Shown piece after piece: positions 9,680 to 44,441 of a DNA stretch of 64,000 nucleotides; the first letter of the stretch is position 1; every line of letters begins with the position of its first letter. The notes below the pieces were generated by a model. It was not told where the DNA came from. It did not search any database and saw only the letters and a program-made list of their open reading frames with translations. Origin of the DNA: Myxococcota bacterium. Its GTDB lineage: Bacteria > Myxococcota_A > UBA9042 > PHBI01 > JAWLBL01. The stretch is taken from the NCBI GenBank assembly GCA_041687695.1, contig JAWLBL010000006.1, positions 96,001 to 160,000 of the forward strand, given 5' to 3'. The translations under genes and the position numbers were made by a program.

Positions 9680-9829
9680 CCGCCTCCCCGGCGGGGCATC
9701 GGCCTGGACCCGGGCCCCGGCGCCATTGTGCATTTGCGCAATGCGTCCGGGGCTCGCTATCTTTCGGTCCAGGGGAGCCGGACGGCGCCGCGCGTCGTGC
9801 GGGGCGGCTGCCGGCGCGGGAGAACTTCG

Positions 9830-10747
9830 ATGACCGACGATCGGCTGCTGGCTTGCGCCCGGGTGCGCCTGCCGGACGGGCTGAGCGCCGCGCTGGGGCC
9901 TGGGGCGCTCATCGGACGCGCCTTCACGGCCGACGCGCGGGTGGACGACGGGCGCGTGAGCGAGGCCCACGCGATGGTGAGCCTGCGGGGCGGCGAGCTG
10001 GTGCTGTTCGCGCTGCGCGGGCGGCTGCGGGTGGGCGAACGCAACGTGACGCGGGTGACGCTCGAGCCCGGGCAGCGGATCGAGCTGGCCGCGGGGGTGG
10101 AGCTGCTCGTCGAGGAGGTCGAGCTGCCGGAGACGCTGCTGGCGCTGGAGGGGCCGGGGGTGGCGCGGCAGGCGCTGGTCGGGGTGACGTCGGTGCTGAC
10201 GGCGCCGGCGCTGCACCTGGTCAACGGGCCGCACCCGAGCGCGGCGGCGCTGGTGTGGAGCGACGGCGTGCGCTGGCGCGTGCGGGTGGGGCAGGGCGCG
10301 CCGCGGCCGCTGCAGGCGGGCGATTGCATCGAGGTGGGCGGGCACACGCTGACGGCGACCGAGATCCCGCGGGTGGTGGTGGGGGTGGCCGAGACGACGC
10401 CGCGGACGAGCGCGCTGGGGCGGCTGCGCATCGTGAGCCTGTTCGACAGCGTGCAGGTCTGGCGCGAGGGCGCGACGAGCCCCTGTGTGCTGCGCGGGCA
10501 GCAGGCGCGCCTGTTCGCCGAGCTGCTCGCCGTGGGCGGCCCCATGCGGTGGGAGCTGGTGGCGGCCGAGCTGTGGCCGGGGGGCGAGGAGTCGAGCGCC
10601 CTGAGGCATCGGCTGGACGTGACGCTGGCGCGGCTGCGGCAGACGCTGAAGGCGGCCGGGGTGCGCCGTGACCTGGTGACGGCCCACCGCAACGGGCACC
10701 TCGAGCTGCTGCTGTACCCGGGTGATCAGGCCGAGGATCGCGGCTGA
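9830..10747 (+). CDS. FHA-domain protein with C-terminal OmpR/SARP-like winged-helix DNA-binding domain
   Basis: FHA: LIGR...DGRVSEAHAMV. wHTH-like: RLFAELL...MRWELVAAELWP...RLDVTLARLRQTL. GGGAG RBS precedes ATG 9830. Confidence 0.75.
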   Translation: MTDDRLLACARVRLPDGLSAALGPGALIGRAFTADARVDDGRVSEAHAMVSLRGGELVLFALRGRLRVGERNVTRVTLEPGQRIELAAGVELLVEEVELPETLLALEGPGVARQALVGVTSVLTAPALHLVNGPHPSAAALVWSDGVRWRVRVGQGAPRPLQAGDCIEVGGHTLTATEIPRVVVGVAETTPRTSALGRLRIVSLFDSVQVWREGATSPCVLRGQQARLFAELLAVGGPMRWELVAAELWPGGEESSALRHRLDVTLARLRQTLKAAGVRRDLVTAHRNGHLELLLYPGDQAEDRG

Positions 10748-10749
10748 GC

Positions 10750-13629
10750 ATGGGGGACGACGGTGACTTCCGCTCGACCTTCGCCGGCGACGCGAGCCTG
10801 TTGGGCGAGGTGGGCGAGCCGAGCGGCGAGGTCCCGCGCGAGGTGACGCCCAGCGGGCCCCGGTACGTCTCGGGCGGCGAGCTGGGCCGCGGCGGGATGG
10901 GGCGGGTCCACGCGGCCTTCGACCCGCTGCTCTCGCGGCAGATCGCCGTGAAGGTGGCGAGGGCCGCGGACCCGGCGGCCGAGCGGCGGCTGCTCGAGGA
11001 GGCCCGCATCACGGCCGGGCTGGACCACCCGGGCATCATCACGGTCCTCGACGCGGGGGCCGACGCCGAGGGGCGGCCGTTCTACGCCATGCGCGTCGTG
11101 GCGGGGCGCAGCTTCGTCGAGGAGGTCGCGGCCGCGCCACCCGGCCGGGCGACGCGCCGGCACGTGCGTACGCTGCTGGCCGCGGCCCAGGCCGTGGCCT
11201 ATGCGCACGAGCACGGCGTCGTGCACCGCGATCTGTCGGCCTCGAACGTGCGCGTGGGCGACCGGGGCGAGGTGGTCGTCATGGACTGGGGGCTGGCGGC
11301 GCGGGTCGAGGACTGCGCGCGCGGGGGGCTGCGCTGCGGCACGCCCGGGTTCACCGCGCCCGAGCTGGCGGCCGCCGAGCCGTCGGGCCCGGCGAGCGAC
11401 GTGTGGAGCCTGGGGGCGCTGCTGCACCTGGCGCTGGCGGGGCGCGCGCCGTCCGTGGAGGGGCTGCCGCTGGGGGCGCCGCCCCGCGGCTGCCCGCCGG
11501 CCCTGTGGTCCATCGCGCGTCGGGCGCTGGCGCACGCGCCCGAGGACCGCTACCCGAGCGCCGCCGGGTTCGCGGACGACCTGACGGCCTGGCTCGACGG
11601 GACGCGCGTGTCGGCGCACCGCGAGGGGCCGTGGGAGCGCGTGACCCGCTTCGGGCGCAGGAACCCGCTGGCGCTGTCGCTGCTGGCGGGGGGCGCGGTG
11701 CTGGTCGCGATCCTGGGCTCGGTGCTGGGCCTGGTCGCGCAGGCGGCCAAGCAGGAGACGCTCGCCGCGACGACGCAGCTGCTGCTCGACGCGGCGCGCG
11801 AGGCCCTGCTGGAGGACGACCACCGCAAGGCGCTCGAGCACGCGCGGCGCGCGCTGAATCAGGCGCCGGAGTCCCCGGACGCGCGCGGCGTTCTGGCGGC
11901 GCTGGCGGCGCTGCCCGAGGTGCCGCGGACCTCCGTGGGCGGCCGCGACGGCTGCGCGACCTTCGACGTCGACGCTGCCGGGCGGCGCGCGTGCTTCGAG
12001 GGCGACCAGCTGTGGCTCGTCGACGGTGGCCGCCGGGTCGCGCTGCCGCTGCCGGCCGAGCACAGGCCCGTCGCGGTGCGCCTGCTCGCGGGCGGACGTG
12101 TCCTGGTGGTCCACCGGGGGCCGAGGCTCGTGCACATGGTCTCGCTGCTCGCCGGCGACGGCGCCTCCCTGGCGCGGTCGCTGATGCACGGCGCCCTGCG
12201 CGCGATGGACGTCGGGGCCGACGGCCGGGACGTCGTCGTGGCCGGGTCGGACGAGATCCTGCTGGTGTGGGACTCAGAGCCCGAGATCCAGCACGCCGTC
12301 CCCTGCCGGGATGGGATGACCCGGCTCGCGGTGTGGCTGGGTCCCGAGCCGGGCCGCGTCGGGATCCTGTGCGACGACCACAGCTTCGTGCACGTCACCC
12401 GCGACGGGATGACGAGCGGCCTGGTGCCCGACCTGACCTACCTGCTGCGGGGGCCGTTCGCCGGGGCGGGCTTGCGCGACGGACGCCTGGTCGTCGGCAC
12501 CATCGAGGGCCGCGTGGGGCTCGTCGACGGGGAGCGGCGGCGCATCCTGGCGAGCGACGCCTCGCCGGTGGGGCCGGTGCGCGAGGTGCGGGTGCTGCCC
12601 GAGGCCCAGACGGCCGTCGTGGTGGGCGAGCGCGGCCACGCCCTGTGGCGCTACGAGATCGGGGCGTGGGCGGCCGTCGATCCTCGCCGGCTGGACGGCG
12701 TGGCGGTGGTCGGCGAGCTGGTCCACGCCTTCACGGGTGACGCCGTCGAGACGCTGCGCGTGCCGAGGCGCGCGAGCTGGCACCGCAGCGCCTGGGGTGA
12801 GGCGCGGACCGTGCCGGCCTTCTCGCCCGACGGCGTGACGCTGGCGCTGGGGGATGGCTCGGGGAGCGTGGATCTGTTCGGGATCGCGACGGGCGAGGCG
12901 CGGCGCCTGCCGGGCGAGCTGGGGGTGGTCAAGGCGGTCGCGTGGTCGCCGAGCGGCCGGCATCTGGCGGTCGGCGCGTCGCGCGATTTCGGCATCGGGG
13001 TGTACGAGGTGGCGACGCTCGCGCCGTTGCGCGGGTCGTGGCAGGTGGCGACGGCGCGGGGCCGCCATGTGGGCTTTCTGAGCGACGCGCTGCTCGTCAC
13101 CATCGCCTGGGGCGAGGGGAGGTACGGCTTCGACGTGGGGACCGGGCGGCCCGTCGGGCTGCCGCCGATGCCGGGTGAGGACGTGACGGACGTAGTGTTC
13201 GAGCCCAAGGGTGGGCGCTTGTGGGCCCTGTTCGACGGGCACGGGGTGTTCTGGGCCACGGCCGAGGAGGTCGCCGAGGTGCGTCCCGCGCCCTACGCGC
13301 GGGCGCTCGCCGTGTCGCACGACGGGCGGCTGCTGGCCCTGGCCGAGGCCGGCGCGGTCGAGGTGCGGGACACGGCGAGCGACGCGGTCCGGGTCCGCTA
13401 CGAGGCGCCCGGGGCCACCATCGACGCGGTGCACGTCGCGGACGACGGGCGGGTCGCGCTGGGGCGGCGGGATGGGACGGTCGAGGTGCGGGCGTCCGAC
13501 GGCGCGCTGGCGCTGCGGCTGACCGCGCACGGGGTGCGGACGGGCGGCGTCGCCTTCTCGCCCGACGGGACCCGGCTCGCCACCACCGGCTGGGATGGCG
13601 TCGCGCGGGTCCTGGTCGTCGGCGAGTAG
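10750..13629 (+). CDS. Membrane Ser/Thr protein kinase with C-terminal WD40/beta-propeller repeats
   Basis: LGRGGMGRV, AVKV, HPGII, HRDLSASN, DWGLA, GTPGFTAPE, SDVWSLG. Hydrophobic TM segment, then WD-type repeats (AFSPDG, AWSPSG, AFSPDGTRLATTGWDG). Confidence 0.9.
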   Translation: MGDDGDFRSTFAGDASLLGEVGEPSGEVPREVTPSGPRYVSGGELGRGGMGRVHAAFDPLLSRQIAVKVARAADPAAERRLLEEARITAGLDHPGIITVLDAGADAEGRPFYAMRVVAGRSFVEEVAAAPPGRATRRHVRTLLAAAQAVAYAHEHGVVHRDLSASNVRVGDRGEVVVMDWGLAARVEDCARGGLRCGTPGFTAPELAAAEPSGPASDVWSLGALLHLALAGRAPSVEGLPLGAPPRGCPPALWSIARRALAHAPEDRYPSAAGFADDLTAWLDGTRVSAHREGPWERVTRFGRRNPLALSLLAGGAVLVAILGSVLGLVAQAAKQETLAATTQLLLDAAREALLEDDHRKALEHARRALNQAPESPDARGVLAALAALPEVPRTSVGGRDGCATFDVDAAGRRACFEGDQLWLVDGGRRVALPLPAEHRPVAVRLLAGGRVLVVHRGPRLVHMVSLLAGDGASLARSLMHGALRAMDVGADGRDVVVAGSDEILLVWDSEPEIQHAVPCRDGMTRLAVWLGPEPGRVGILCDDHSFVHVTRDGMTSGLVPDLTYLLRGPFAGAGLRDGRLVVGTIEGRVGLVDGERRRILASDASPVGPVREVRVLPEAQTAVVVGERGHALWRYEIGAWAAVDPRRLDGVAVVGELVHAFTGDAVETLRVPRRASWHRSAWGEARTVPAFSPDGVTLALGDGSGSVDLFGIATGEARRLPGELGVVKAVAWSPSGRHLAVGASRDFGIGVYEVATLAPLRGSWQVATARGRHVGFLSDALLVTIAWGEGRYGFDVGTGRPVGLPPMPGEDVTDVVFEPKGGRLWALFDGHGVFWATAEEVAEVRPAPYARALAVSHDGRLLALAEAGAVEVRDTASDAVRVRYEAPGATIDAVHVADDGRVALGRRDGTVEVRASDGALALRLTAHGVRTGGVAFSPDGTRLATTGWDGVARVLVVGE

Positions 13630-13641
13630 GGGCGGCGCAGG

Positions 13642-16600
13642 TCAGAGCGAGAAGATCATCGAGTTGCCGGTCGAGACCTCGAGCACGACCAGCCCCATCC
13701 CGTCGTGGGAGAAGTAGACGCGGTCGGCGTCGTCGGGGGCGAACCAGAAGCCGCCGTAGTTCTGCGACAGGCCCGAGTCGAGCGAGCCCGAGATGCAGGC
13801 GAGGCCGGGGTCGGCGGGGGCGTCGTTGCACGACAGGGCCACGCGCGCCGCGGTCGCCGGGTCGACCAGGACGACCTGGGTGCCGCCCTGGCGGCCGACG
13901 GTCCAGTAGCGGGCGCGGGCGGCGTCCCACTTCACCCAGCGGTGGCCGACGCCGGACGAGCCGGTGGGGCCGGACCCGAGCGGGTTGGCGGTCGAGGCGC
14001 CCGTGAGGCGGGCGCGGTCGCCGGTGGCCAGATCGATGGCGTACAGGGTCAGGTCGAAGGCGTTGAGGGCGAGCAGCTTGCCGTCGTGCAGCCCGAAGCC
14101 GGTGAGGACGCCCGAGGTGAAGGCCCAGCCGGCGCCGACCGAGGTGCCGGCCATGGCGTTGCCGGCCATGGTGCCCGCGCGGGTGACGTACTGGCAGGTC
14201 TGCTGGGCGCCCGTGCCGCTGATGCGGATGACGCCCAGGCCTTCGCCGACGGGCGAGGTGTTGGAGAAGCCCAGGTAGAAGGCCCCGGCCGCGTCGATCG
14301 CGAAGCCGTCGGCGCGGGTCTGGACCGACTTGCCGTCGCGGCCGTTGTCGCAGACCGCGAAGCCGGCGCCGTCGCGCTGCCACACCAGGGTGCGGTCGCC
14401 GGTGGCCGGGTCGACGGCGACGATCTCGCCCATCACGTTGGTCCCGGACCAGACGTACAGCGTGCCGTCGGGGCCCCGCTGCACGTCGATGACGTTGGTC
14501 AGGCGGTGGCCGGCGCCGACCTCGGCCGGGGCGCCGCCCGCGGAGAGGTGCTCGCCCGACAGGACGGTGCGGTCGCCGGTGGCGAGGTCGAAGGCCATGA
14601 CGAAGCCGGCGTCGGGGTTGGCGGCGCTGGACCAGGCCACGGCCGCGACGATCTTGCCCTGCGCGGCGTCGAGGAAGCCGCCGAGGAGGGTCGCCTGCGG
14701 GTGGGCGCCGACCCGGACGCCCGCGCCGACGGTCACGCCGGACTCCGAGATGTAGGCCTCGTAGGGGCGCCAGCACACGGGCAGGCCGCCGGTCAGGGCG
14801 CGGTTGGTGAGGCAGCGGCAGTCGGCGTCGAGGGCCGTCGGCTCGGAGACGAACTGCTCGAAGACGCACGAGTCCGCGTAGTAGGGGCTGTCCGGGTCGC
14901 CGACCGAGCTGGTGCAGGTCGCGCCGTCGCCGTAGTCGTAGCAGACCAGGCCTTCGGCGCAGGCCTCGGCCACGCCGTCGACTACGCCGCAGCTGTTGAC
15001 GGTCACGACGGCCGCGCCGCCCTCGGCCGTGGTGCCGCACTTGGTCGAGGTGGCCGGGGTGCAGGCGCCGCAGACCGGGGTGGCGCCGCTGTCGTCACAG
15101 GGCGCGCCCGGGTTGCAGGCGACGTCCAGCGTCGTCGCGCCGCAGCTGTCGACCCACACCACGTCGCCGTCCTCGCAGGCCTTGCCGACCTTGGGCGTGC
15201 AGGCGCACCAGAAGTCGACGTTGTTGGTCGTGCACTGGGCGCCGCCCGTGCAGGCCTCGGCCACGGTCCAGCTCTTGCCGTCGGCGGCGCACACGCGGAC
15301 CTCGCCGAGATCGGGGGCGCAGTAGGTCTTGCCCGCGTTGCACACGATGCCGACGTCGTCGACGCAGCTGGCGGTGCCGTCGGCCTCCTGGCAGATCTTG
15401 CCGCTGGCGCAGGTGGCGTAGACGAAGGTGCCGATGCCGGTGGTCTTGCACTGCAGCACCTGCTTCAGGTCCGCAGAGCACGTCCGCTCGTTCTTGGTGC
15501 ACAGGAGCGCCGGGTCGTCGACGCAGCTCGCGGTCGTGCCATCGGCCATGCAGATCTTGTTCGTGGCGCACAGCTGGAAGTTCTGGGTCGCCGTGCCCGT
15601 GGCGTTGCACTGCAGAACGTACTTCGCGTCCTCCGAGCACAGCTTGCTGTTCGGGACGCAGACCAGGCTCGGGTCGGGGACGCAGGCGGCGGTGCCGTCG
15701 CTCGCCTGGCAGATCTGGCCGACCGGGCAGGTCGCGGAGGGGGCGCTGCCCGAGCCGTCCTCCACGCACACGAGCACGCCCTTCGCGTCGTCCGAGCAGC
15801 TCAGCGCGCCCGGGTCGCAGACGCTGACGTCGACGCAGGTCGGCGTGCCGGCGACGGTCTGGCAGGCGTGCGTCAGGGGACAGGCCTCGACCGGGTCGGC
15901 CCCGGAGCCGTCGGCCCTGCACTGCTCGATCCCCTCGCCATCGGCCGCGCAGCTCAGCGCGCCCGGCGAGCACACGCTGACGTCCACGCAGACGGCCGCC
16001 TCGGCGACCAGCTGGCAGGCGTGGGTGATGGGGCAGGTCTCGGCCGGCTCGAAGCCGCTGCCGTCGCCCGCGCACACCCACACCGAGGCCCCGTCCTCGC
16101 CGCAGTCGGTCTCGCCCGGCGAGCACACCGGCGGCGTCACGTCGGCGTCGGCCGCGTCCTCGGCGACGTCGGGCTCGACCGCGTCGGGCCCGGAGACGTC
16201 CTCGACGGCGTCGGGCATCGAGACGTCCTCGACGGCGTCGGGCACCGAGACGTCCTCGACGGCGTCGGGCCCGGAGACGTCCTCGACGGCGTCGGGCTCG
16301 GAGGCGTCCTCGACGGCGTCAGGCTCGGAGGCGTCCTCGACGGCGTCGGGCACCGAGACGTCCTCGACGGCGTCGGGCACCGAGGCGTCCTCGACGGCGT
16401 CGGGCCCGGAGACGTCCTCGACGGCGTCGGACTCGACGACGTCCTCGACGGCGTCGGGGCCCGAGCCGTCCTGCTCGGCGTCGGGCCCGGCGGCATCCGC
16501 GGAGGCGTCCTGGCCGGCGTCGTCATCGGCGTCGTGGCCCACGTCCGGATCGCCGGTCACGTCGCCGCCGCCGCCGTCCTGGTGCGCGTCCTTGTCGCCG

Positions 16601-16725
16601 TGGATCGTGTCGCCGGCCGCGTCGATGTCGGCCGTCGCCCCTTCATCCCCGCACCCGGCCGCGCCGAGCGCCAGCAGCACCGCCGCCACCATGTGGGTGC
16701 ACGGCCTCCGCATGCCCATCTTCAT
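13642..16725 (-). CDS. Large lipoprotein: acidic repeats, Cys-rich repeats, C-terminal beta-propeller-like region
   Basis: Lipobox AAGC, (PDAVEDVSx)n, several CxPG..C..C..DG..C..C modules, and repeated DLATGDR/DPATGDR blades. GAGGTG RBS. Confidence 0.82.
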   Translation of the reverse strand: MKMGMRRPCTHMVAAVLLALGAAGCGDEGATADIDAAGDTIHGDKDAHQDGGGGDVTGDPDVGHDADDDAGQDASADAAGPDAEQDGSGPDAVEDVVESDAVEDVSGPDAVEDASVPDAVEDVSVPDAVEDASEPDAVEDASEPDAVEDVSGPDAVEDVSVPDAVEDVSMPDAVEDVSGPDAVEPDVAEDAADADVTPPVCSPGETDCGEDGASVWVCAGDGSGFEPAETCPITHACQLVAEAAVCVDVSVCSPGALSCAADGEGIEQCRADGSGADPVEACPLTHACQTVAGTPTCVDVSVCDPGALSCSDDAKGVLVCVEDGSGSAPSATCPVGQICQASDGTAACVPDPSLVCVPNSKLCSEDAKYVLQCNATGTATQNFQLCATNKICMADGTTASCVDDPALLCTKNERTCSADLKQVLQCKTTGIGTFVYATCASGKICQEADGTASCVDDVGIVCNAGKTYCAPDLGEVRVCAADGKSWTVAEACTGGAQCTTNNVDFWCACTPKVGKACEDGDVVWVDSCGATTLDVACNPGAPCDDSGATPVCGACTPATSTKCGTTAEGGAAVVTVNSCGVVDGVAEACAEGLVCYDYGDGATCTSSVGDPDSPYYADSCVFEQFVSEPTALDADCRCLTNRALTGGLPVCWRPYEAYISESGVTVGAGVRVGAHPQATLLGGFLDAAQGKIVAAVAWSSAANPDAGFVMAFDLATGDRTVLSGEHLSAGGAPAEVGAGHRLTNVIDVQRGPDGTLYVWSGTNVMGEIVAVDPATGDRTLVWQRDGAGFAVCDNGRDGKSVQTRADGFAIDAAGAFYLGFSNTSPVGEGLGVIRISGTGAQQTCQYVTRAGTMAGNAMAGTSVGAGWAFTSGVLTGFGLHDGKLLALNAFDLTLYAIDLATGDRARLTGASTANPLGSGPTGSSGVGHRWVKWDAARARYWTVGRQGGTQVVLVDPATAARVALSCNDAPADPGLACISGSLDSGLSQNYGGFWFAPDDADRVYFSHDGMGLVVLEVSTGNSMIFSL
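16180..16460. repeat. 27-bp tandem repeats encoding PDAVEDxSx
   Basis: About 10 copies of units containing CGTCCTCGACGGCGTC inside the lipoprotein gene. Boundaries approximate. Confidence 0.85.
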
Positions 16726-16757
16726 CCATCACCTCGAGATCCCTGGATCGGGAGGCC

Positions 16758-16802
16758 ACGCTACGGGCACCGCGCCGCGCTGGGATCTCACGTTGATCTC
16801 AC
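16758..16802 (-). promoter_or_regulatory. Putative activator-dependent promoter, copy 1: GTGAGAT-N4-GTGAGAT plus TAGCGT box
   Basis: ATCTCAC at 16785-16791 and 16796-16802 (+ strand), ACGCTA at 16758-16763, 21-nt gap. Same architecture recurs at 25733-25777. Confidence 0.7.
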
Positions 16803-16809
16803 GCCCGCC

Positions 16810-18807
16810 TCACGGCCACCCGTCCCCGCGCCGGACCCGCACCGCCCGCCCCGTGGCCGCCGCCTCGCGCTGCGCCGCCCCCAGGACGTGCGCCGTCGTC
16901 AGCCGCGCCCCCTCGCGCGCCGCCGCGTAGGCCCCGATGAGGATGGCGTTCTTGATCTCGCCGCCGCTCAGCTCGACGTCCGCCAGCGCCTCGAAGTCGA
17001 TGGGCTCGGCCGTCTCGACGTCCTCGGGCAGCAGGTACCGCCACAGCCGCACCCGCTCGTCGAACCCGGGCAGCCCGAAGGTCACCCGGAAGGTGAAGCG
17101 CCGCTCGAAGGCCTTGTCGATGGCCTGCTTCAGGTTGGTCGTCAGCACCGCGATGCCCGGGAAGCGCTCGACCAGCTGCAGCAGGACGTTGACGTCCATG
17201 TTCGAGTACCGGTCGGCGGACCGCTCCACCGACGTGCGCTTGGAGAACAGCGAGTCGGCCTCGTCGAACAGCAGCAGGCTCCCCTCGGGCCGCGCCCGCT
17301 CGAAGATGCGCGTCAGGTTCTTCTCCGTCTCGCCGATGTACTTGTCGACCACGCTCGCGGTGTTGATGCGGACCAGCGACAGGCCCAGCTCGGCGGCGAC
17401 GACCTCGGCCGCGTGGGTCTTGCCGGTGCCCGGCTCGCCGTCGAACAGCGCGATGATGCCCGTCCCGCGGCAGATGCGCCGCCCCAGCCCCCAGCCGCTC
17501 AGCACCAGGCTCCGCGCCCGCCCCGCGGCGATGACCTCCTCGACCCGCTCGCGCGTCTCGTCGTCCAGCACGAGATCGGCCAGGCGCGCCCGCGGCTCGC
17601 TGACCACCGCCAGGTCCCCCACGTTGCGCGTCAGCTGCGCCCGCGCGGCCCGCTCGAGCCCGGCCGGTTCCAGCCCCTCGGGCGCGCTCACCAGCGCCGC
17701 CAGCCGCACCGCCTGCCCGACCTGCCGCGGGCTCAGGTGCACCCGCGCCGCCAGCTCTCGCAGCGTCTCGGGCGCCAGCTCGGCCTCCGTCGGCAGGTTC
17801 AGGCGCCACACCCGCGCCTCGTCCGGCCCCCCGGCCAGCGCCAGGCGCCGCCGCAGCAGCGTCACCCGCTCGAGCGCCGGCTCCAGCCCCGCGTCCGACG
17901 GCGTCACCAGCACCACCGCCGCGTCGCGCCGCCGCACGAACCGGGCCAGCGCGTGGGCGGCCGCCCCGGTCAGCCGATGCCCGTCGCGCACCAGCACCAC
18001 GTCGCCGTACAGCTCGCTCATCCGCGTCAGCGCCGACAGGACCTCGCGCTGCTGGCCCTCCGACGCGACCGACAGCGCCCCGCCATCGACCTCGAGCGTT
18101 CGCCGATCGATGCCCCGCGCCGCCGCCCGCGCCGCCGTCGCCCGGCCCGACCCCTCGGCGCCCTCGAGCACCAGCAGCACGCCCTCGGCCGCCGGCCCCG
18201 CAAGCGCCCCCAGCCACCCCGGCGTCGGCGCGGGACGCGCCGCCCACGCCGCCAACACGGCGCATAGCCACCCGATGGCCTCGCCCTCGCTCGACGGCGC
18301 CTCGCCGCCGCCCGCCGGCTCCGTCACCTCCAGGTAGGGCGCCGTCGTCAGGGGCGCCGCCTCGACCCCCGCCAGCAGCCCGGCCACCACCGGGTCGGCC
18401 GCCAAGGGCGCGAACAGCGGCGCCTGGCCCGCGGCCGCGTAGGCCACCAGCAGCTCGCGGCGGGCCAGCGTGCCCTGCGGGGCCAGCGCCGCGCGCAGCA
18501 GCCGCTCGTCGTCCGGCCCGTCCGACAGCAGGCGCAGCAGCAGCGCCAGGTCCAGCCGGTCGCGGCGCAGGTCGTCGTTGGCGCGCGCGACGCGCTCGCG
18601 GTGGCCGGGGTCCAGCTGGTCCATCGCGACCAGCCACAGCACCAGCAGCTCGAGCTGCGTCAGCCCGTAGCGCGCGGCGACGGGCGCCCCGGGCGCGTCC
18701 GGCCCGGTCAGCTGGGCGGCCACCTCGCGGCGCGCCACGGTCAGGCCGGCCTCGTCGCCCAGGCTGGCCAGCAGGACCTCGACGCCGTGCAGGAAGGCGG
18801 GGCTCAC
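16810..18807 (-). CDS. AAA+ ATPase, Afp15/Pvc15-like family (N-terminal helical domain, degenerate AAA, intact AAA)
   Basis: GTG start overlaps the upstream stop (GTGA). N-terminal YGLTQLELLVL...LDP...LDLALLLRLL. Degenerate GAEGSGRAT. Intact FDGEPGTGKT, VVDKYIGETEKNL, LLLFDEADSLFSKRT, DRYSNMDVNVLLQ, LTTNL, IDKAFERRF, LSGGEIKN. Confidence 0.85.
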   Translation of the reverse strand: MSPAFLHGVEVLLASLGDEAGLTVARREVAAQLTGPDAPGAPVAARYGLTQLELLVLWLVAMDQLDPGHRERVARANDDLRRDRLDLALLLRLLSDGPDDERLLRAALAPQGTLARRELLVAYAAAGQAPLFAPLAADPVVAGLLAGVEAAPLTTAPYLEVTEPAGGGEAPSSEGEAIGWLCAVLAAWAARPAPTPGWLGALAGPAAEGVLLVLEGAEGSGRATAARAAARGIDRRTLEVDGGALSVASEGQQREVLSALTRMSELYGDVVLVRDGHRLTGAAAHALARFVRRRDAAVVLVTPSDAGLEPALERVTLLRRRLALAGGPDEARVWRLNLPTEAELAPETLRELAARVHLSPRQVGQAVRLAALVSAPEGLEPAGLERAARAQLTRNVGDLAVVSEPRARLADLVLDDETRERVEEVIAAGRARSLVLSGWGLGRRICRGTGIIALFDGEPGTGKTHAAEVVAAELGLSLVRINTASVVDKYIGETEKNLTRIFERARPEGSLLLFDEADSLFSKRTSVERSADRYSNMDVNVLLQLVERFPGIAVLTTNLKQAIDKAFERRFTFRVTFGLPGFDERVRLWRYLLPEDVETAEPIDFEALADVELSGGEIKNAILIGAYAAAREGARLTTAHVLGAAQREAAATGRAVRVRRGDGWP

Positions 18808-21800
18808 AGCTTGCCCTGGAAGGAGGTGAAGGGCATCAGGACCTTCAGCGTGGCCTCGGTCGGGTAGCGGCGCTCGAAGCGGGCGCGGCTCAGCTGGCGC
18901 AGCGTGGTCACGTCCGTGGCGTCTTCCATCCAGCACTCGCGCGAGAAGAAGGTGTCGAGGGACTGGCGCATGGCGGCCAGGTTGGCGGCGTTGGCCGGCC
19001 GCCCGTACCGGGTCAGCGTCGCCTTGGCGTAGGCGTCGTCGAACACCGGGGCCGAGCCCTCGCGGGCGCGCCAGTCGTTGGCGCCGGTGGTCGACGCCGT
19101 GGAGAAGAAGCGGGTCTTGGGGTTGGCGACCGCGGGGCCGTAGGTGGTGTGGCCGATGACGGCGCCCTCGCGCTTGCCCTCGGCGTGCAGGGCGTCGCGC
19201 CAGGCGTCGGCCATGCCGCCCTCTTGCTTGGCGGCGGTGCTGCAGGCGAACAGGCGGACGCGCACGTCGCTCGACAGGTGCCGGGCCATGCGCGAGACCA
19301 GCGACGGCACGTCGGCCTGGCCGATGTGGGCGCCGGCCGCCGCCCCGCGGCCGTGCATCGAGCCCGAGGAGCCGTGGGTCGCCAGGGCCAGGAAGCGGAC
19401 GCGCGCGACCTGCGCGTCGGCGGCGGCGCGCGCGGGTGTGGCCGGGTTGGCGGCCAGCAGGGCGGCCACGGCGGCGGACGTCGAGGCGACCAGCTTCGGG
19501 ATGTCGTCCTTGGTGCGGTAGGTCAGGTGACGGCCCAGCTCGACCTTGCCGCGGTCGGCGGCCACCGCGCCCTCGGCGCTGGCGAACTGCTTGGCCTCCC
19601 ACTGGAAGACCAGGTTGTTCTTGCAGGCGACGGTGCCGACCCGCTGGCGGAGGTTGGTGTCCGCGAACATGGCCGCGTTGACGGCTGCGACGTCGTGCAT
19701 GGCCGCGGCGATCTGGTTGCGTTGCGCCTTCGTGGCCTGGGTGACGTCGGCGGGCAGGGGCGAGGTCGGCTTGCGCGCCGCGGACCACAGCCGCTGCAGG
19801 CGCGGGTGGTCGGCCGGGGTCGCGGCCATCTGCGACAGCACGTAGCGGAAGGCGTAGGGGTCCAGGTCACCGGGCCCCTTGGCCTGCTTGGCCGCGTCGG
19901 CGCCGCTCTGGAACGCGTCCGGGATGCTCAAGGCGACCACCACGCCGCCAGGGAAGCGTTGCCGCAGCGCGTCGGCCGCCCCGGGATCCTTCAGCGCCTT
20001 GGCGTCCAGCGGCGTCGTCGGCTCTCCGCCGCCCTTGCCCTTCGGCTCGGGCAGCAGCCGGACGTGGCGCGGCTCGCTCGGCTCCTTGACGGTCGAGCCG
20101 CCCAGCGAGGGCTTCTTCATCGGGCCGGTGTAGCGGTACGCCTTGGCGTTGCCGCTCTTGACCCGCGCGGCGATGTCGTCCGCGGTCCAGGCGCCGGTCA
20201 GCCCGATGTAGCCCATGTTGTAGCCGGCCTGGATGACGTTGCCGAAGGTCAAGGTCTCGTCGCCCACCTTGCGGCTGCCCACGCCCTTGGTCGGCACCGC
20301 CAGCGCGATGTGGCCGGTCGTGTAGGCGTCCTGCTCGCCGGCCTTCCGGCCCGCCTTCAGGTCGCCCCGCGACAGGATGAAGACCAGCTCGCCCCGGTTG
20401 ACGTGCTCGTCCCAGATGGCCCGATGCAGGTCCAGGTCGGGCAGGGCCAGCACCTGGAAGTCCTTGGGCGGCGCCTTCTCGTAGACCGTGAACATGTCGC
20501 TGGTCCGATGCGCGCGCGAGACGTTGGCGTGGGCCAGGTTGTCCAGCGCGTCGATGACCAGGTGGTTGCAGTAGGTGGCGCTCGGCCGCTCGACGTAACC
20601 CCGCTGCTTGCCCCAGTTCGGGTCGTCATCGTCGTTGCCCTGCCGCAGCCGCGTCCACAGCTCCGAGGCGACCGCGCCGCCGCCCACCGCCTCCATGAAG
20701 GCCACCTCGTCGTCGAAGGACCCGACGATGAGCGCCTTGGCCTGCGCGCCGGTCCGCCACGCCGCCGCCTGGCCGGCTTTGACGTACACGCGGCTGCCCG
20801 CCGGCAGGTTGTCCCCCATGTTGCCGATCTGGAACAGCACCTCGAGCGCCTGGTGGTCGCCGTCGACCTCGAGCAGCCGGTAGGGGACGTTGCGCCCCGC
20901 CAGATAGTTGGTCTTGTCGAACCGCCCGTCCCGCTTCACGTACAGCCACGGGCTCGAGGTCGAAAAGCGCACCTTCGGGTCGTCGTGCACCCGCCGGAGA
21001 TCCGACAGGTCCCCAGGCGGCGCCGGCTCGCCGCCGCCCCGCAGCGCCTTGCCGCCCTTGGGGTCGACCGGGCCGACGTCCTTGCCCGTCCCCAGCGCCG
21101 GGTAGCGCGCCGCAACGTCCAGCGCCACGTCCGCCGCCCGCACCAGCCGGTCGAAGGCCTCGGCGTCCCCGTCCTTCATCGCCCAGCGCGCCAGCACCCC
21201 CAGCTCCAACGCCCAGCTCCCGTGCGCCGCCAGCAACTCGAACGGCCGCATCACGTCCCACGTCGGCCGCGCCTCCATCAGCCGCGCCCGCGCCGGCCCC
21301 ACGAACGCGTCCAGCTGCCGGGCCCCCGCCTCGCTCGCGTGCACCGCGTCGACCCGCCGCCGCAGCGCCACGTCCGCCTCCAGCGCGAACAGCCGCGCCG
21401 CCCGCGCCCCGTCGATCACCCGCGGCCGGTCCGGCGCCGCCGGCTCCTCCCGCGCCTCCTGCGGCCCCTTCCCCCGCGCCTGCTCCATCCGCCGCTCGAT
21501 GAGCGCCAGCGCCCCGTCCAGATCCAGCGCCGCCCCCGCGTCGGCCGGCCGCGTCTTCGGCCGCGCCGCCGACAGCTTGCCGACGTCCCCCGTCCCCTCG
21601 CGGATGACGTCCGCCAGCGTCTTGCCGCCCGCCTTCCTGGCCCTGGGCGCGTACGCCCCGCGGAAGAAGTCCTCGATCTCCTGCGTCCACGCCGCCGGGT
21701 CGTCCACCGCCACGCCCGCGAAGCGCGCCTTCGTCTCGGCGAAGGCCGCCGCGAACAGGTCCTCTCGCTTGCCCAGGTGGTCGCTCGTGTAGGCGTAGCA

Positions 21801-24800
21801 GTACCGGGTCAGCGGCGCCCAGATGTAGTCGTAGGCGCTGTGCCCCCCCTGCACCTTCTTGTTCACCGCCATGTGGCGCTCCTCGGCGATGGCCCGCCCC
21901 GTGATCGCCGCCTGCACCCGCGGGTCGGCCATCAGCGCGTTCATCACCGCCAGCTTCGCCACGTCGTAGCGCATGACCAGCTGCGGCAGGTTGCTGGCCC
22001 CGGACCCCGCCTTCCCCTTCGCCGACAGCGTCCGGTCCGCATGGAAGGACGTCTTCACGTTCGCCTCGAGCAGCGCCCTCGCCTCGGCGTCCCCCGCCTT
22101 GCCCGCCGCCGCCAGCGTCGCCAGCCCGTCCTTCAGCGGGTCGCGCCCGTACGCGGCCAGGATCGCCCGCACCTGCGCCTCCGAGCCCTCGCTCCGCTCC
22201 GAGTACGTCTTGCCGTCGGCCGCGTCGACCTCGAAGAAGAACCACTGCGCCGTCTTCGCGTCCCCGCCGACCGGCCGCACACGCACCCCGACCGACGCCA
22301 GCAGCGCCCCGATCTCGCCCCGCGCGTCGTGCCGCATGGCCTGCCCGAACGCGTTCGCCAGCAGGCTGCACCCGTGGCCGTAGTCGGTGCCGGCCAGCCC
22401 GTCGAGCCCCATCGTCACGTGCATCCGGTCGTACGTGTTCGACGCGAAGTGCCCCAGCTCGCCGCCCTCGGTCGCCCCCTTCGCCCGATAGATGGCCAGC
22501 TCGTCGTCGCTCGCCCCCAGCGCCTCCTGCACCAGCGCCCAGTGGTGGCCCTTGCCCGCCGCCGTCGCCCGCTCGCCGTCCACCGTCACGCCGTGGATCA
22601 TCCAGCCCGACAGCCACCGGTTCGACGCGTCGTGCCGGGTCATCGCGGTCCACCGGTACACCAGCGTGACGTTGCCCACCTTCACCGTGCAGGTCGTCTC
22701 GAACGGCACCAGCTCCCGCGTCGAGTAGACCGGCTTCACCTCGCCCACCGCGCCCAGCGCCAGCGCGCCCTCCACGGCCGCCCCACCCGCCTTCCGCGCG
22801 TCCTTCACCCACAGCGCCGCGAAGTCGTCGTCCTCCGGCGTCGTCCGCGCCGGCCGCAGCCCCTCCGCCCGCTCATGCCACCGCGCCGCCTCCGCCTCGC
22901 TCAGCAGCCCCAGCCCCTTGGCCTCGCCGACCCGCCCCAGCGCCCGCTGATACGCCGCCTCGCTCGGCGCCCCCCGCAGCGCCGCGCCCAGCAGCGCCTC
23001 CACCTCGCGCCCGATCTCGGCCCGCATCGCCGCCGCGTCCCCCCCGAGCGCCCCCAGCGGCTCCACGAACCCCCGCCGCACCTCCGCCAGCCCGGCCAGC
23101 CCCGCCGCCCGCGCCTGCATCCACCGCCGAAACGCCTTGCCCTGCGCCCCCGGCGGCATCCCCGCGACCTCCGCCGCCTCCGGTCGCCACCCCTTCAGCC
23201 CCGCGGTCGCCGCCTCGCCGTGGACCTTCGCCCCCTTCCCCAGGTACCAGGCCTCCTCGGCCGCCGGCGTCGCCCCGAACACCTTCCCGGTGAACGCCTC
23301 CCGCACCGCCTCCGCCCCCGCCAGCCGCGGCACCTGCCGCGCCACCTCGCCCCGGTCCACCTCGACCGCCACCGCCAGCGCCACCAGCGCCGCCCCCTCC
23401 AGCGTCCCCACCGTCACCCGCCGCCCCGCCACCGGGTCGTCCACCTCCCACCCGTCGTCCACCCGCCCCACGACCCGCCGCACCTCGGCGCCCGGCCCGA
23501 CCGCCAGCACGGCCTGCCCGCTGCCCAGCGCGCCCGAGACCCCGTCCGGCGCCACCACCTCGGCCCCGACCCCGAACGCCCGCGCCAACGCCGCCACGCC
23601 GCCCGCGTCCAGCGCCTCCGGCAGCCCGCGCTCGAGCCGCACCATCTCCAGCGCGTCCGCGAAGCACCCCGCCTCGGGGTAGGGCGAGGCCACCCCCAGC
23701 GTCTCCAGCGCCAGCCCCAGCGCGGCCAGCGGCCCCCGCCGCGCCTCCGTCACCACCGTCGCGGCCGCCGCCGGGACCAGCTTCGCCTTGCGCTGAAGCC
23801 GCTCGAACCACGCCTGCCGCGTCGGCCCGTGCGCCACCCCCACCACGAACGCCCGGCAGCGCGCGATCTCCAGGGCGCTCAGCGTCTCGCGGTGCAGCAG
23901 CCGCTCCTCGTCGGTCGCCACCCGCAGCGCCGCCCGCGGCGCATGGACCGGCCGCCCCCGATGCAGCACCTCCACGAAGTCCGGGTCGTTGTCGGCGGTC
24001 TTCCCCACCAGCGCCGCCGGGTCCTCGCCCAGCTCGCCCACCGGCCGGGCCGTGTCCTCGGCATACACCCCGGCGTAGACCGGCACCTTCGCCCCGGCCA
24101 CCGCCGGCCGCAGGTAGTCCACGACCGTCAGCCCGCTCGGGGTCACTCCCAGCAGCGTCCGCTGCGGCGCCTCGGCCTCCACCCGCGCCTCGTTCGTGAA
24201 CGCCGTGTCCAGCCACCCGAGCCGCGCCGGCCCGCCCTCGGGCGCGTCCACCAGCGCCCGCGCCCAGGTCCGCCCGCCCGCCTCGCGCCGCTCGCGCGTG
24301 ACCGGCACCCGGTCGCCCACCCGCAGGTCCCGCAGCCGCGGCGCGTGGTGGTCCGGCTGCGCATGGACCCCCAGCACCAGCTCGACCAGCTCCTGATAGA
24401 CCGCCGTCAGGAACGCGTCCGGCCGGGTCCCCGCCTCGGCCGGCTCGGCCGCCTCCAGCGCGCCAGCGTCCACTCGGCTGCCGGCCGCCGGCTCCGTCGC
24501 CAGCTCGGGCGCCCGCGTCCCCGCCCCCGGCAACCCGGCCAGCCCCAGCGGCGCCAGCGCCTCGGCCAGCGTCGCCTCCAGATCCGCCAGCGACTTCACC
24601 GTGTCGACCCGCGCCTCGATGGCCCCGTCGAACCCCGTCGCCGCCCGCGCCTCGGCCGGCCCCCGCGGCGTCTGCGCGAGGATCCATGGCTCCAGCAGCG
24701 CCGGCGCCGCCTCGCCGGTCCCCACCAGCGCCGCGACCGTCCCCGGAGGCGGCGAGTCGCCCGGCCCGATCCGGCCCCCGGTCAGCCGCCCCGCCAGCTC

Positions 24801-25676
24801 GCCCGCGTCGCGGTGCCCCAGCCGGTGCGCCACGGTGCGCAGCCGGTCCTTGCGGTGGGCCCGCAGCGCCTCGGGGTCCGTCGCTCGCAGCGCGCGCCGC
24901 TCGTCCCGGCTCAGCCGCTCGACCTGGAAGTGCCGCCAATACGTCGCGACGTCGCCCAGGTACTGCTGCGCCACCCGCCCGGCCAGCACGCGCCGCGTCA
25001 GCTCGGCCGTCATCGCGTCGACGTCCTCGCGGGTCAGCGCCAGGCCCTTGACGAAGACCAGCTGGTTGACCAGCTCCGACACGCGCTGCAGGACCAGCGC
25101 CCGGTCCCCCGGCACCTCGCGCCCGTGCGCGTCGACCGCCGCCTCGGCCAGCCGCGCCGGCTCGGCCGCGTCACCCATCAGGCCCAGGTGGGTCAGCCGC
25201 GCGCGCCGCCGCGCCCGCGCCCGCTCGGGGAACAGCAACGGATCGACCCCGGCGATCTCGGCCTCGGCGTTCGCCTCGTGCGCTTCGTTGCTCGCCACCT
25301 GCGCGGCGCTCACCTCGGCCTCGGCGGCGTCGACGGGCCGCTCGCGCTCGGCGTCCAGGGCCTGTGGCTGCTGCTTGAGCCGAGCCCGGAAGGCGCCGAC
25401 CCGCAGGTCCTGCGCCTCCTTGTCGGCCAGCGCGTCGGCCGAGAGCGTGGCCTTCGGGTCCAGAGGCGCCGGCTCGGCCTCGGGCGCGGGCGTCGGCGTG
25501 GGCTCCTGCGGTCGCGGCCGGACGGCCTCGCGCGCCTCCTCGTACCCCTGCGGCGTCCGCTCGTCGGTGGCCAGCGGCGACCGCTCGGCGCGGGCCAGCT
25601 CGCTCGCCTGGTCGTCGTGGCGCGGCGCGTGCGGCGTCAGGGTCGGGACCGGTTCCTGGTGGCGCGGGACGACCAT
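18804..25676 (-). CDS. Giant (2290 aa) multidomain protein, putative polymorphic effector or cell-wall-lytic enzyme
   Basis: Open frame with GAGGAG RBS before ATG 25676. Motif-level resemblance to SH3b, degenerate C39-like, lysozyme-like (EG..SNTYD), CHAP/NlpC-like (TYCN...GHIA...IQAG) and His-Cys peptidase-like (THG...LFACS) segments. The CDS itself is solid; the function is inferred. Confidence 0.75.
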   Translation of the reverse strand: MVVPRHQEPVPTLTPHAPRHDDQASELARAERSPLATDERTPQGYEEAREAVRPRPQEPTPTPAPEAEPAPLDPKATLSADALADKEAQDLRVGAFRARLKQQPQALDAERERPVDAAEAEVSAAQVASNEAHEANAEAEIAGVDPLLFPERARARRRARLTHLGLMGDAAEPARLAEAAVDAHGREVPGDRALVLQRVSELVNQLVFVKGLALTREDVDAMTAELTRRVLAGRVAQQYLGDVATYWRHFQVERLSRDERRALRATDPEALRAHRKDRLRTVAHRLGHRDAGELAGRLTGGRIGPGDSPPPGTVAALVGTGEAAPALLEPWILAQTPRGPAEARAATGFDGAIEARVDTVKSLADLEATLAEALAPLGLAGLPGAGTRAPELATEPAAGSRVDAGALEAAEPAEAGTRPDAFLTAVYQELVELVLGVHAQPDHHAPRLRDLRVGDRVPVTRERREAGGRTWARALVDAPEGGPARLGWLDTAFTNEARVEAEAPQRTLLGVTPSGLTVVDYLRPAVAGAKVPVYAGVYAEDTARPVGELGEDPAALVGKTADNDPDFVEVLHRGRPVHAPRAALRVATDEERLLHRETLSALEIARCRAFVVGVAHGPTRQAWFERLQRKAKLVPAAAATVVTEARRGPLAALGLALETLGVASPYPEAGCFADALEMVRLERGLPEALDAGGVAALARAFGVGAEVVAPDGVSGALGSGQAVLAVGPGAEVRRVVGRVDDGWEVDDPVAGRRVTVGTLEGAALVALAVAVEVDRGEVARQVPRLAGAEAVREAFTGKVFGATPAAEEAWYLGKGAKVHGEAATAGLKGWRPEAAEVAGMPPGAQGKAFRRWMQARAAGLAGLAEVRRGFVEPLGALGGDAAAMRAEIGREVEALLGAALRGAPSEAAYQRALGRVGEAKGLGLLSEAEAARWHERAEGLRPARTTPEDDDFAALWVKDARKAGGAAVEGALALGAVGEVKPVYSTRELVPFETTCTVKVGNVTLVYRWTAMTRHDASNRWLSGWMIHGVTVDGERATAAGKGHHWALVQEALGASDDELAIYRAKGATEGGELGHFASNTYDRMHVTMGLDGLAGTDYGHGCSLLANAFGQAMRHDARGEIGALLASVGVRVRPVGGDAKTAQWFFFEVDAADGKTYSERSEGSEAQVRAILAAYGRDPLKDGLATLAAAGKAGDAEARALLEANVKTSFHADRTLSAKGKAGSGASNLPQLVMRYDVAKLAVMNALMADPRVQAAITGRAIAEERHMAVNKKVQGGHSAYDYIWAPLTRYCYAYTSDHLGKREDLFAAAFAETKARFAGVAVDDPAAWTQEIEDFFRGAYAPRARKAGGKTLADVIREGTGDVGKLSAARPKTRPADAGAALDLDGALALIERRMEQARGKGPQEAREEPAAPDRPRVIDGARAARLFALEADVALRRRVDAVHASEAGARQLDAFVGPARARLMEARPTWDVMRPFELLAAHGSWALELGVLARWAMKDGDAEAFDRLVRAADVALDVAARYPALGTGKDVGPVDPKGGKALRGGGEPAPPGDLSDLRRVHDDPKVRFSTSSPWLYVKRDGRFDKTNYLAGRNVPYRLLEVDGDHQALEVLFQIGNMGDNLPAGSRVYVKAGQAAAWRTGAQAKALIVGSFDDEVAFMEAVGGGAVASELWTRLRQGNDDDDPNWGKQRGYVERPSATYCNHLVIDALDNLAHANVSRAHRTSDMFTVYEKAPPKDFQVLALPDLDLHRAIWDEHVNRGELVFILSRGDLKAGRKAGEQDAYTTGHIALAVPTKGVGSRKVGDETLTFGNVIQAGYNMGYIGLTGAWTADDIAARVKSGNAKAYRYTGPMKKPSLGGSTVKEPSEPRHVRLLPEPKGKGGGEPTTPLDAKALKDPGAADALRQRFPGGVVVALSIPDAFQSGADAAKQAKGPGDLDPYAFRYVLSQMAATPADHPRLQRLWSAARKPTSPLPADVTQATKAQRNQIAAAMHDVAAVNAAMFADTNLRQRVGTVACKNNLVFQWEAKQFASAEGAVAADRGKVELGRHLTYRTKDDIPKLVASTSAAVAALLAANPATPARAAADAQVARVRFLALATHGSSGSMHGRGAAAGAHIGQADVPSLVSRMARHLSSDVRVRLFACSTAAKQEGGMADAWRDALHAEGKREGAVIGHTTYGPAVANPKTRFFSTASTTGANDWRAREGSAPVFDDAYAKATLTRYGRPANAANLAAMRQSLDTFFSRECWMEDATDVTTLRQLSRARFERRYPTEATLKVLMPFTSFQGKL

Positions 25677-25732
25677 GCGGGGCTGCTCCTCGCGCCGCCC
25701 TGCGACGCCTGGACTCGGGGTGGAACCCGGCC

Positions 25733-25777
25733 AGCCTACGGACCGCGCGCCGCCTCGGGATCTCACCGGAATCTCAC
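25733..25777 (-). promoter_or_regulatory. Putative activator-dependent promoter, copy 2: GTGAGAT-N4-GTGAGAT plus TAGGCT box
   Basis: ATCTCAC at 25760-25766 and 25771-25777, AGCCTA at 25733-25738, 21-nt gap as in copy 1. Confidence 0.7.
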
Positions 25778-44279: not shown

Positions 44280-44418
44280 TGGCCTCTCCGTCTCTAAAAG
44301 GGCTGATGATCCAAGGGCATCGGCGCGAGCATGGCGGCGCCGATCCGAGGTGTCCAATCTTTTCGACGGCCTCGGATCCCGCTCGGATACGGGTCCGCCG
44401 CGATGGGCGATCGGTGGG

Positions 44419-44441
44419 CGCTGTATAGCCGCTTTACAGCG
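44419..44441. promoter_or_regulatory. Palindromic site CGCTGTA-N9-TACAGCG in a divergent promoter region
   Basis: 7-bp perfect inverted repeat in a relatively AT-rich gap between divergent genes. Confidence 0.35.

Follow-up and report, generated by a model that had tools for sequence, protein, structure and literature searches.

We analyzed a 64,000-nucleotide stretch of DNA from a Myxococcota bacterium (assembly GCA_041687695.1, contig JAWLBL010000006.1, positions 96,001 to 160,000; hereafter, the window), and in particular a locus of five genes between positions 9,830 and 25,777 of the window. The assembly is 7.97 Mb long, has 73% GC, and is 99% complete. A previous reading of this DNA, made from the sequence only, had described the locus as a self-contained cassette in which a kinase and an FHA-domain regulator switch on a giant effector, a loader ATPase of the type known from extracellular contractile injection systems (eCIS), and a surface lipoprotein. 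We found that the locus is a mosaic of two separately conserved modules joined in this genome: the regulator with its membrane kinase (module A), and the giant protein with its ATPase (module B).

Organization of the locus

Translation of the open reading frames (ORFs) and Pfam searches confirmed that the window carries all five described genes; the repeat shared by both reverse-strand units is also present. The gene calls were made with our own codon model, in which start positions may be misplaced. The forward strand encodes a regulator consisting of an FHA domain and a winged helix (9830-10747, 305 amino acid residues), followed by a kinase with a WD40 region (10750-13629, 959 residues). 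The reverse strand encodes a lipoprotein (13642-16725, 1027 residues), an ATPase similar to Pvc15 and Afp15 (16810-18807, 665 residues, GTG start), and a giant modular protein (18804-25676, 2290 residues), which has GAGGAG upstream of its ATG, lacks a Sec signal, and is predicted to be an eCIS cargo. The GTG start of the ATPase gene and the stop of the giant gene overlap by 4 nucleotides. Pfam gave no match for the full-length giant or lipoprotein. A longer version of the giant (2359 residues, starting at 25883) was rejected, as it overlaps the promoter element and a divergent gene; the start at 25676 is preferred because the leaders of the orthologues align with it.

The repeat, GTGAGAT-N4-GTGAGAT, is composed of two head-to-tail heptamers with a period of 11 bp, and lies 21 nucleotides before TANNNT. 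Promoter element 1 (25733..25777, reverse strand; repeat at 25777-25760) has 21 nucleotides and then TAGGCT as the predicted -10, 56 nucleotides before the giant start. In element 2 (16758..16802, reverse strand; repeat at 16802-16785), the predicted -10 is TAGCGT, again after 21 nucleotides, and the start of the lipoprotein gene follows 32 nucleotides downstream. Both sites keep 14 of the 14 repeat bases, the 21-nucleotide spacing, and TANNNT, while the 4-nucleotide spacers and the middle bases of the -10 differ. A scan of the region yielded no sigma70 -35/-10 pair.

Regulator, kinase, and lipoprotein

The FHA domain of the regulator occupies about residues 27-86 (Pfam FHA, E 3e-4). The winged helix, of the OmpR/PhoB type, is C-terminal, followed by only some 15 residues, and its recognition helix (about residues 256-276) has Arg-His at 259-260. 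Among 77 aligned members of the family, FHA matches 72 and Trans_reg_C 13, and no BTAD match was obtained in any of the 77. Gly29, Arg30, and His47 of the FHA domain are invariant in the alignment and Ser44 is nearly so, but the NGT motif does not retain its Asn. A search of the PDB with the family profile found FhaA, AdeR, and EmbR, the match to the DNA-binding domain of AdeR being weak and consistent (E 0.005). The family has 573 representatives at E 1e-10 or better and occurs in 30 of the 107 genomes of the class studied, with up to 18 matches per genome. The regulator/kinase pair is widespread in Myxococcota, to which some of the named records bearing the regulator belong. The sequence-only reading had likened the pair to kinase/SARP pairs. 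The OmpR-type winged helix fits this analogy, but membership of the regulator in the SARP family was rejected, as its domain order is reversed relative to that of SARPs and no BTAD was found.

A kinase gene adjoins the regulator gene in 39 of 40 loci (36 tandem and 3 divergent), so the two genes are indeed a pair, as first read. Two additional sets of loci, often truncated, had kinase matches as well (54 of 67 and 32 of 50). The kinase in the window, of the Hanks Ser/Thr type, matches Pkinase (2e-28) and WD40 in Pfam. Between the catalytic and WD40 regions there is one hydrophobic helix (residues 311-329, Kyte-Doolittle (KD) value 2.48), predicted to span the membrane. The Gly loop, the Lys of VAVK, DWG in place of DFG, and APE are all recognizable. 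The same genome has a second pair of this kind on another contig (C30:32540-48156, locus L134), in the reversed order and with a different recognition helix; the gap at this locus holds imperfect repeats with an 11-bp period, and a divergent paralogue of the lipoprotein lies beside the pair.

The lipoprotein (13642-16725, reverse strand) has a lipobox with Cys25, acidic PDAVED repeats at residues 90-176, a Cys-rich middle part, and a conserved C-terminal domain of about 430 residues. This C-terminal domain is encoded by 6 of the 78 genes that flank regulator/kinase pairs versus 0 of 329 more distant genes, and it recurs in two additional sets of regulator loci (2 of 67 and 2 of 50). The family is likewise present beside the second pair on C30, and absent beside three orthologous giants described below. 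The lipoprotein thus travels with the regulator and kinase, not with the effector. Its possible role as an immunity protein was rejected, given this absence beside the orthologous giants. A PDB sequence search with the lipoprotein alignment gave nothing significant.

The promoter repeat and its probable link to the regulator

The exact repeat occurs twice in the whole genome, both times at this locus, whereas 0.004 copies are expected from the frequency of the heptamer. When up to 3 mismatches were allowed together with TANNNT, the genome contained 3 sites with a 21-nucleotide spacer and 0 with spacers of 18-20 or 22-24 nucleotides. The third site (on contig C35) and a fourth with an imperfect -10 (on C22) are each located upstream of a gene for an exported protein, and the former sits between its target gene and a paralogue of the lipoprotein gene. 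The giant gene is the only target whose product has neither an N-terminal hydrophobic nor a lipobox leader. A scan for repeats of period 11 followed by a -10, regardless of sequence, showed no enrichment genome-wide, and its signal at regulator loci was weak (4 of the 78 genes beside the pair versus 2 of 329 more distant ones).

The repeat recurs beside the closest orthologues of the regulator. Two loci with 67%-identical regulators (L137 and L138) have two copies each, before neighboring genes for lipoproteins or secreted proteins; at L137, one of the targets is a homologue of the lipoprotein in the window. TA was located exactly 21 nucleotides from the repeat in 10 of 68 matches, and at any other distance in at most 2. 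Of the 10 sites listed for other genomes, one lies before the regulator gene itself and one is ambiguous; at the remaining 8, the gene that follows encodes a protein with an N-terminal hydrophobic or lipobox leader. The pattern was found in 6 of the 29 regulator-bearing genomes versus 2 of the 77 others. With permuted heptamers, the number of matches averaged 3.1 and never exceeded 8, compared with 17 for the real repeat; the reversed-heptamer control contains TA and is biased low.

We also compared the recognition helices at 103 loci, after dropping two duplicates and leaving out loci with an unreadable helix. The repeat with TA at 21 nucleotides was found at 8 of the 16 loci with Arg-His in the helix versus 1 of the 87 others; it speaks against this comparison that the Arg-His feature was picked after the matches had been seen and that the loci are related. 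Two further results count on the same side. A period of 11 is unspecific on its own, as periods of 9 and 15 gave 15 and 12 matches versus 17, and among 50 further, mostly short metagenome loci the site occurred in 1 of 5 with Arg-His (one already counted) versus 2 of 35 others. Taken together, the repeat is likely the binding site of the regulator, a phylogenetic footprint with strong comparative support, in agreement with the first reading. An activator role fits because the site lies upstream of a promoter without a -35 match.

It is improbable, in our estimation strongly so, that the repeat is read by another factor, such as a response regulator, or that the adjacent regulator acts as a repressor. 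OmpR-family proteins generally bind repeats with an 11-bp period, and the link between protein and site comes from comparative evidence. The site, however, co-varies with the recognition helix and sits beside the closest orthologues, while the C30 paralogue, with its different helix, has no such site; the position of the site relative to the promoter fits an activator.

Perfect pairs of a variant heptamer, GTCAGAT, were observed at L147:9133 and L158:9132 (reverse strand), and a TCTGATC pair with a -10 at 20-21 nucleotides at about L050:13150 (reverse strand), all beside regulators with other recognition helices. These variants suggest a possible helix-to-repeat code across the regulator family.

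Pairing of the giant with the ATPase

The ATPase matches AAA (8e-30) and an N-terminal WHD (PF22977, 1e-8) in Pfam, and the alignment contains two AAA modules. D1 is degenerate (GAEGSGRA; the Walker A Lys is replaced by Arg, and the DE of Walker B is missing), and D2 is intact (GEPGTGKT and LLFDEAD). Homologues are present in eCIS loci of Deinococcus and Streptomyces; of three plasmid matches examined, two have baseplate, sheath, or DUF4255 genes around them, and the third record is unannotated. These features agree with the first description of the protein as similar to Afp15 and Pvc15, an assignment based on its domains, its motifs, and the setting of its homologues.

Searches of full-length and middle-domain sequences against protein databases found no relative of the giant, the ESM Atlas gave no usable match, and scanning metagenomes with the alignment of the giant produced no confirmed locus; homologues came from genome searches alone, with matches in six other genomes of the class. 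Three of these homologues are long (2395-2966 residues), and the ATPase gene is adjacent in all three, with the same 4-nucleotide overlap in two. Their ATPases are the best matches to that of the window in 106 other genomes (49-53% identity), and the four form one clade (SH-aLRT 99) in a quick version of the tree, where the two named eCIS rows are long branches. By analogy with known loaders, the ATPase is likely the loader of the giant.

The two modules are separate elsewhere. The regulator family was not found beside the three giant-ATPase pairs within the fetched stretches; the nearest copy is about 65 kb from the pair in one of the three genomes, and another has no family match. Conversely, tblastn found no giant homologue at 157 regulator loci (some of them duplicates), one of which had an AAA match that is short and unrelated (33%). 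The five-gene order was found at none of these loci (0 of 157). Thus, the regulator pair and the lipoprotein recur together, as do the giant and the ATPase, but all five were found together only here. At one other regulator locus, the protease domain of the giant recurs in a gene three genes away. Genes with the leader motif described below flank other regulator loci (3 of 78 versus 2 of 329, p 0.05, after one false match to a truncated kinase was dropped); therefore, capture of cargo genes by the regulator family may recur.

Domains of the giant

The giant has no hydrophobic stretch at its N-terminus. Residues 1-50 are among the most hydrophilic 0.6% of the proteome (5510 proteins), and are followed by GYEEAREAVRP (residues 44-54, in part overlapping; 25515..25547, reverse strand), a variant of Y-x-E-x4-L-x-P and a candidate loading signal. 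This motif also occurs near the N-termini of DUF4157, muramidase, calpain, and C39 proteins of this genome, and the three giant orthologues keep it at positions 41-45 in leaders that are otherwise divergent. About 16 proteins without a signal sequence (on contigs C1, C7, C10, C12, C16, C21, C22, C23, C31, C38, C43, and C48) share an N-terminal L-[RA]-G-x-x-Y-x-E-x4-L-x-P, with or without DUF4157; there it precedes muramidase, calpain, C39, UCH, or peptidoglycan-binding domains, and may be a lineage-specific eCIS loading signal.

The first recognizable domain is SH3b-like (about residues 435-496; 24189..24374, reverse strand; Pfam SH3_3, E 0.02, and E 0.009 in a paralogue), which alignment showed to be common to a DUF4157 protein of the same genome. 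It is followed by a conserved segment (about residues 1040-1165; 22182..22559, reverse strand), in which Glu1070 and Asp1083 are invariant in 4 of 4 sequences; by its motif the segment may be a lysozyme-like muramidase, in a part of the model with a predicted local distance difference test score (pLDDT) of about 30. Fold searches with residues 1001-1560 gave generic helical matches only.

Three folds were predicted in the C-terminal part by VIA-align comparison of a model of residues 1561-2290 (pLDDT 74.7). About residues 1567-1650 (20727..20978, reverse strand) resemble the SH3b fold of 2evr (Z 7.6, root-mean-square deviation (rmsd) 2.9, 68 residues aligned). About residues 1664-1855 (20112..20687, reverse strand) are predicted to adopt an NlpC/P60 (CHAP-like) amidase fold, closest to the type VI secretion effector Tse1 (an NlpC/P60 amidase; 3vpi; Z 8.7, rmsd 3.5, 130 aligned), and also align with CHAP domains of endolysins (Z 6.9-7.7). 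Cys1703 and His1789 of this region are invariant in 3 of 3 homologues, and the region has no Pfam match. About residues 1907-2250 (18927..19958, reverse strand) are predicted to form a caspase-like cysteine protease of the C80 cysteine protease domain (CPD) type, with the closest match to Tce1, a cargo of the type VI secretion tube (9qpe; Z 11.3, rmsd 3.2, 164 aligned), Z 9.3 to a CPD, and E 0.012 to DUF4347; His2101, Gly2102, and Cys2145 are invariant in 8 of 8 alignment rows. PDB sequence searches with four alignments of the giant found nothing significant. The model thus predicts that the giant carries peptidoglycan amidase and cysteine protease domains.

The homologues of the giant shuffle their domains, several bearing PG_binding or DUF4157, and its domains are shared with DUF4157 proteins (at C21 and at locus L089). 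The giant of another genome, G049, ends in a segment (L085:185-900, reverse strand) that stands in place of the cysteine protease domain; it has no Pfam match, and by its motifs it may be an M15-type D-Ala-D-Ala peptidase.

The eCIS particle is encoded elsewhere

Genes for Pvc16, two sheaths, two tubes, a CIS_tube-LysM protein, gp25, baseplate J, and Tail_P2_I were found on a different contig (C17). At this structural locus, no ATPase match was found, and the spike, tape measure, and fibre genes had no Pfam match. The locus (C17:91341-111187, L117) also includes a 1657-residue ORF without a family match and is near kinase and phosphatase genes. The cassette is therefore not self-contained, because delivery would need the particle from another contig. 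Delivery by a type VI secretion system was rejected, as neither Hcp nor VipB had a match in the 99%-complete assembly. Two stand-alone eCIS tube genes lie off the structural locus (C27:93708-94142 and C8:58052-58753).

At E 1e-40, 9 matches to the ATPase were found in the genome; DUF4157 matches number 18. Three further ATPases adjoin DUF4157 giants of 1604-3217 residues, and one is two genes from a 1549-residue protein. These four further pairs of ATPase and large cargo are at C11:53650-65992, C18:101152-111308, C5:190663-197621, and C23:76394-85504; the C18 giant has a Tse3_N match, and at C23 a 676-residue gene product without Walker motifs is encoded between the ATPase and the cargo.

Other features of the window

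A fusion of FHA and GGDEF (33042-33965, forward strand) is a second possible reader of phosphothreonine near the kinase. The end of a long ORF (43074-49055, reverse strand; the true start is perhaps later than the ORF call) encodes a Peptidase_M74 murein endopeptidase along with three LysM domains. An inverted repeat, CATTG-N10-CAATG (9724-9743), to which another factor may bind, lies upstream of the regulator gene.

Discussion

The gene order, the sites, their co-occurrence with one regulator subtype, the pairing of the giant with the ATPase, and the separate structural locus were established directly in this study. The reading that we favor, with moderate confidence, is that the kinase and the FHA-winged helix regulator likely activate the repeat promoters, and that the giant is a predicted wall-degrading and protease cargo that its cognate ATPase would load into an eCIS particle encoded on another contig. 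The pathway might run as follows. A signal at the WD40 region would trigger autophosphorylation of the kinase, and the FHA domain would dock on the phosphothreonine and so activate the regulator, as suggested by the FHA family and PknH-EmbR. Two protomers would then occupy the head-to-tail heptamers, between about -51 and -34, and recruit sigma70 RNA polymerase to a promoter with a -10 but no -35 match. The regulon would consist of the lipoprotein gene, the giant-ATPase operon, and the two distant genes for exported proteins, before all of which sites were found. By analogy with Pvc15 and Alg15, the ATPase would recognize the hydrophilic leader and thread the giant into the tube lumen. Inside a bacterium that has received the giant, peptidoglycan would, if the predicted folds are right, be attacked by the SH3b and NlpC/P60 domains, and the CPD-like domain may process the polyprotein or serve as a second toxin. 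The lack of an evident immunity gene could be explained because a signal-less cytoplasmic hydrolase would not reach the wall of the producer. Based on the pairing with the ATPase, the leader, and the predicted folds, the giant is likely an effector, as the sequence-only reading had proposed.

Several observations pull in the opposite direction. DUF4157 was not found in the giant by Pfam. The leader ranked 8th of 5807 with an 11-column core profile over the first 70 residues, a profile and range narrowed after the fact, and only 313th of 5818 with a 16-column profile. The best Foldseek E value was 0.011 and none was 0.001 or less, though the same folds ranked first, and the catalytic Cys1703 is in a low-confidence stretch of the model. 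The giant, at 2290 residues, exceeds the sizes of 1100-1230 residues given for loaded cargo in the available parts of the papers cited below. The catalytic loop of the kinase reads HRDLSASN, with Ser at the place of a Lys that is kept in most of the family; the Ser-type loop is also present in the two closest orthologues. Most of 20 further ATPase loci have no adjacent cargo; these cargo-less ATPases belong to slower-evolving clades and may be general loaders. Finally, signaling from kinase to FHA domain, activation, leader-dependent loading, and antibacterial action are all proposed from analogy and comparative sequence data. As regards size, Afp18 is longer than 2000 residues.

The strongest alternative, though we regard it as unlikely, is that regulation is as proposed and the giant is not an eCIS cargo: the ATPase would be a dedicated chaperone or unfoldase, with the giant being released by lysis or in vesicles, or serving remodeling of the cell's own wall or programmed lysis. 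The missing DUF4157, the conserved clades of solo ATPases far from any cargo, and the absence of an evident immunity gene are in line with this. Across the 107 genomes of the class, tube genes were found in 89 and the ATPase in 95, and 8 of the 18 tube-negative genomes still have an ATPase match. On the other hand, 10 of the 12 ATPase-negative genomes have no tube match either, and all 3 genomes with a giant-ATPase pair have tube genes. The leader and domains shared with DUF4157 proteins also favor cargo, as does the nearest match by fold, itself a cargo of a tube lumen.

An even less probable explanation is that the giant-ATPase pair landed in a regulator-lipoprotein locus together with a copied promoter fragment, so that co-regulation is incidental or non-functional. 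The uniqueness of the five-gene order would agree with this, as would our finding no repeat with a -10 upstream of the three orthologous giants. A copied fragment does not readily account for two sites that preserve every repeat base, the spacing, and TANNNT while their spacers differ, and the leader-motif genes and the protease domain near other regulator loci likewise speak for a functional association. Hardly credible in our view is the original proposal of a conserved, self-contained five-gene weapon whose lipoprotein presents the effector or protects against it at the surface: the genes are adjacent and the promoter elements identical, but synteny contradicts it, since in none of the other genomes examined are the modules together. 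In addition, members of the lipoprotein family are missing beside orthologous giants and present by giant-less regulator pairs, and the cassette has no tube, sheath, or export gene.

A wider picture can be sketched, which we offer tentatively and with more doubt than conviction: uncultured myxobacteria may run a distributed eCIS arsenal, with a loader-less structural locus, scattered cargo marked by a motif, cargo-specific loaders for the largest cargos, and expanded "eukaryote-type two-component systems" of kinase and FHA/winged-helix regulator with a readable helix-to-repeat code. A single cargo could then be placed under its own surface signal, and the payload would be chosen by the signal. 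These results bear on how eCIS particles select and load their cargo. In the available text of the papers cited below, each system is treated as having a single ATPase gene; since the cargo here comes with an ATPase clade of its own and a leader with a recognizable motif, the specificity of loaders can be put to a direct test. For the regulator family, a site, the geometry of the promoter, and a candidate residue for specificity are now predicted in an uncharacterized pathway from kinase to promoter. As eCIS are reported, in the part of the study available, to be highly expressed in uncultured predatory Myxococcota (PMC11937823), the giant is a concrete candidate for an antibacterial payload of these systems.

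Comparison with known systems

A literature search outside subscription papers, bioRxiv supplements, and eCIS databases found no account of the regulator family or of satellite ATPases paired with cargo. The ATPase resembles Pvc15, Afp15, and Alg15 in its N-domain and D1/D2 pattern; Pvc15 is described as having an N-domain, a D1 that is degenerate, and a D2 that is active and contains GTGKT and DEAD (PMC11495950). A hydrophilic N-terminal leader, as in the giant, is a feature reported for eCIS cargo in the consulted sections of another paper (PMC11297309), and DUF4157 is dispensable for loading in systems of the Pvc15/Alg15 type, according to the available portions of two reports (PMC11495950; bioRxiv 10.64898/2026.05.27.728243). 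Unlike in those systems, the ATPase here is encoded away from the structural locus, at which no ATPase match was found, and the genome has 9 family matches, several of them each coupled to one giant gene. The leader here also has a recognizable motif, whereas the available parts of these papers report no leader sequence conserved across systems.

The regulator and kinase are similar to PknH-EmbR of M. tuberculosis and to AfsK-AfsR in combining a Hanks kinase with an OmpR-type winged helix and direct repeats of 11-bp period, and share the FHA domain with EmbR. They differ from SARP/EmbR proteins in that the FHA domain comes first and the winged helix last, no BTAD was found, and the kinase carries WD40. 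The distance from the 3' repeat to the -10 is 21 nucleotides here versus 8 bp for SARPs in the accessible part of the source (PMC10936776). The pair is also expanded here to as many as 18 matches per genome, unlike PknH-EmbR and AfsK-AfsR.

Dispersed DUF4157 cargo genes far from the structural locus are described for the CIS of Halogeometricum borinquense in the text available (PMC11566945). Peptidoglycan-hydrolase cargo (EAT10) is known among eCIS-associated toxins (EATs), and regulators, sometimes with histidine kinases, are found beside eCIS loci, as stated in the portions consulted (PMC8213781, PMC11297309). The distant cargo and its predicted peptidoglycan hydrolase are features in common with these systems, but the same portions describe neither a cargo-specific ATPase nor a Ser/Thr kinase-FHA regulator. 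Tce1 and Tce2, presumed to be proteases of the cysteine type, are loaded in Hcp3 rings, according to the available text (PMC13323088). Two domains of the giant resemble Tse1 and Tce1 in their predicted folds and Cys-His dyads; here, in contrast to Tse1 and Tce1, they are fused in a shuffled polyprotein of 2290 residues, encoded in a genome without Hcp or VipB matches.

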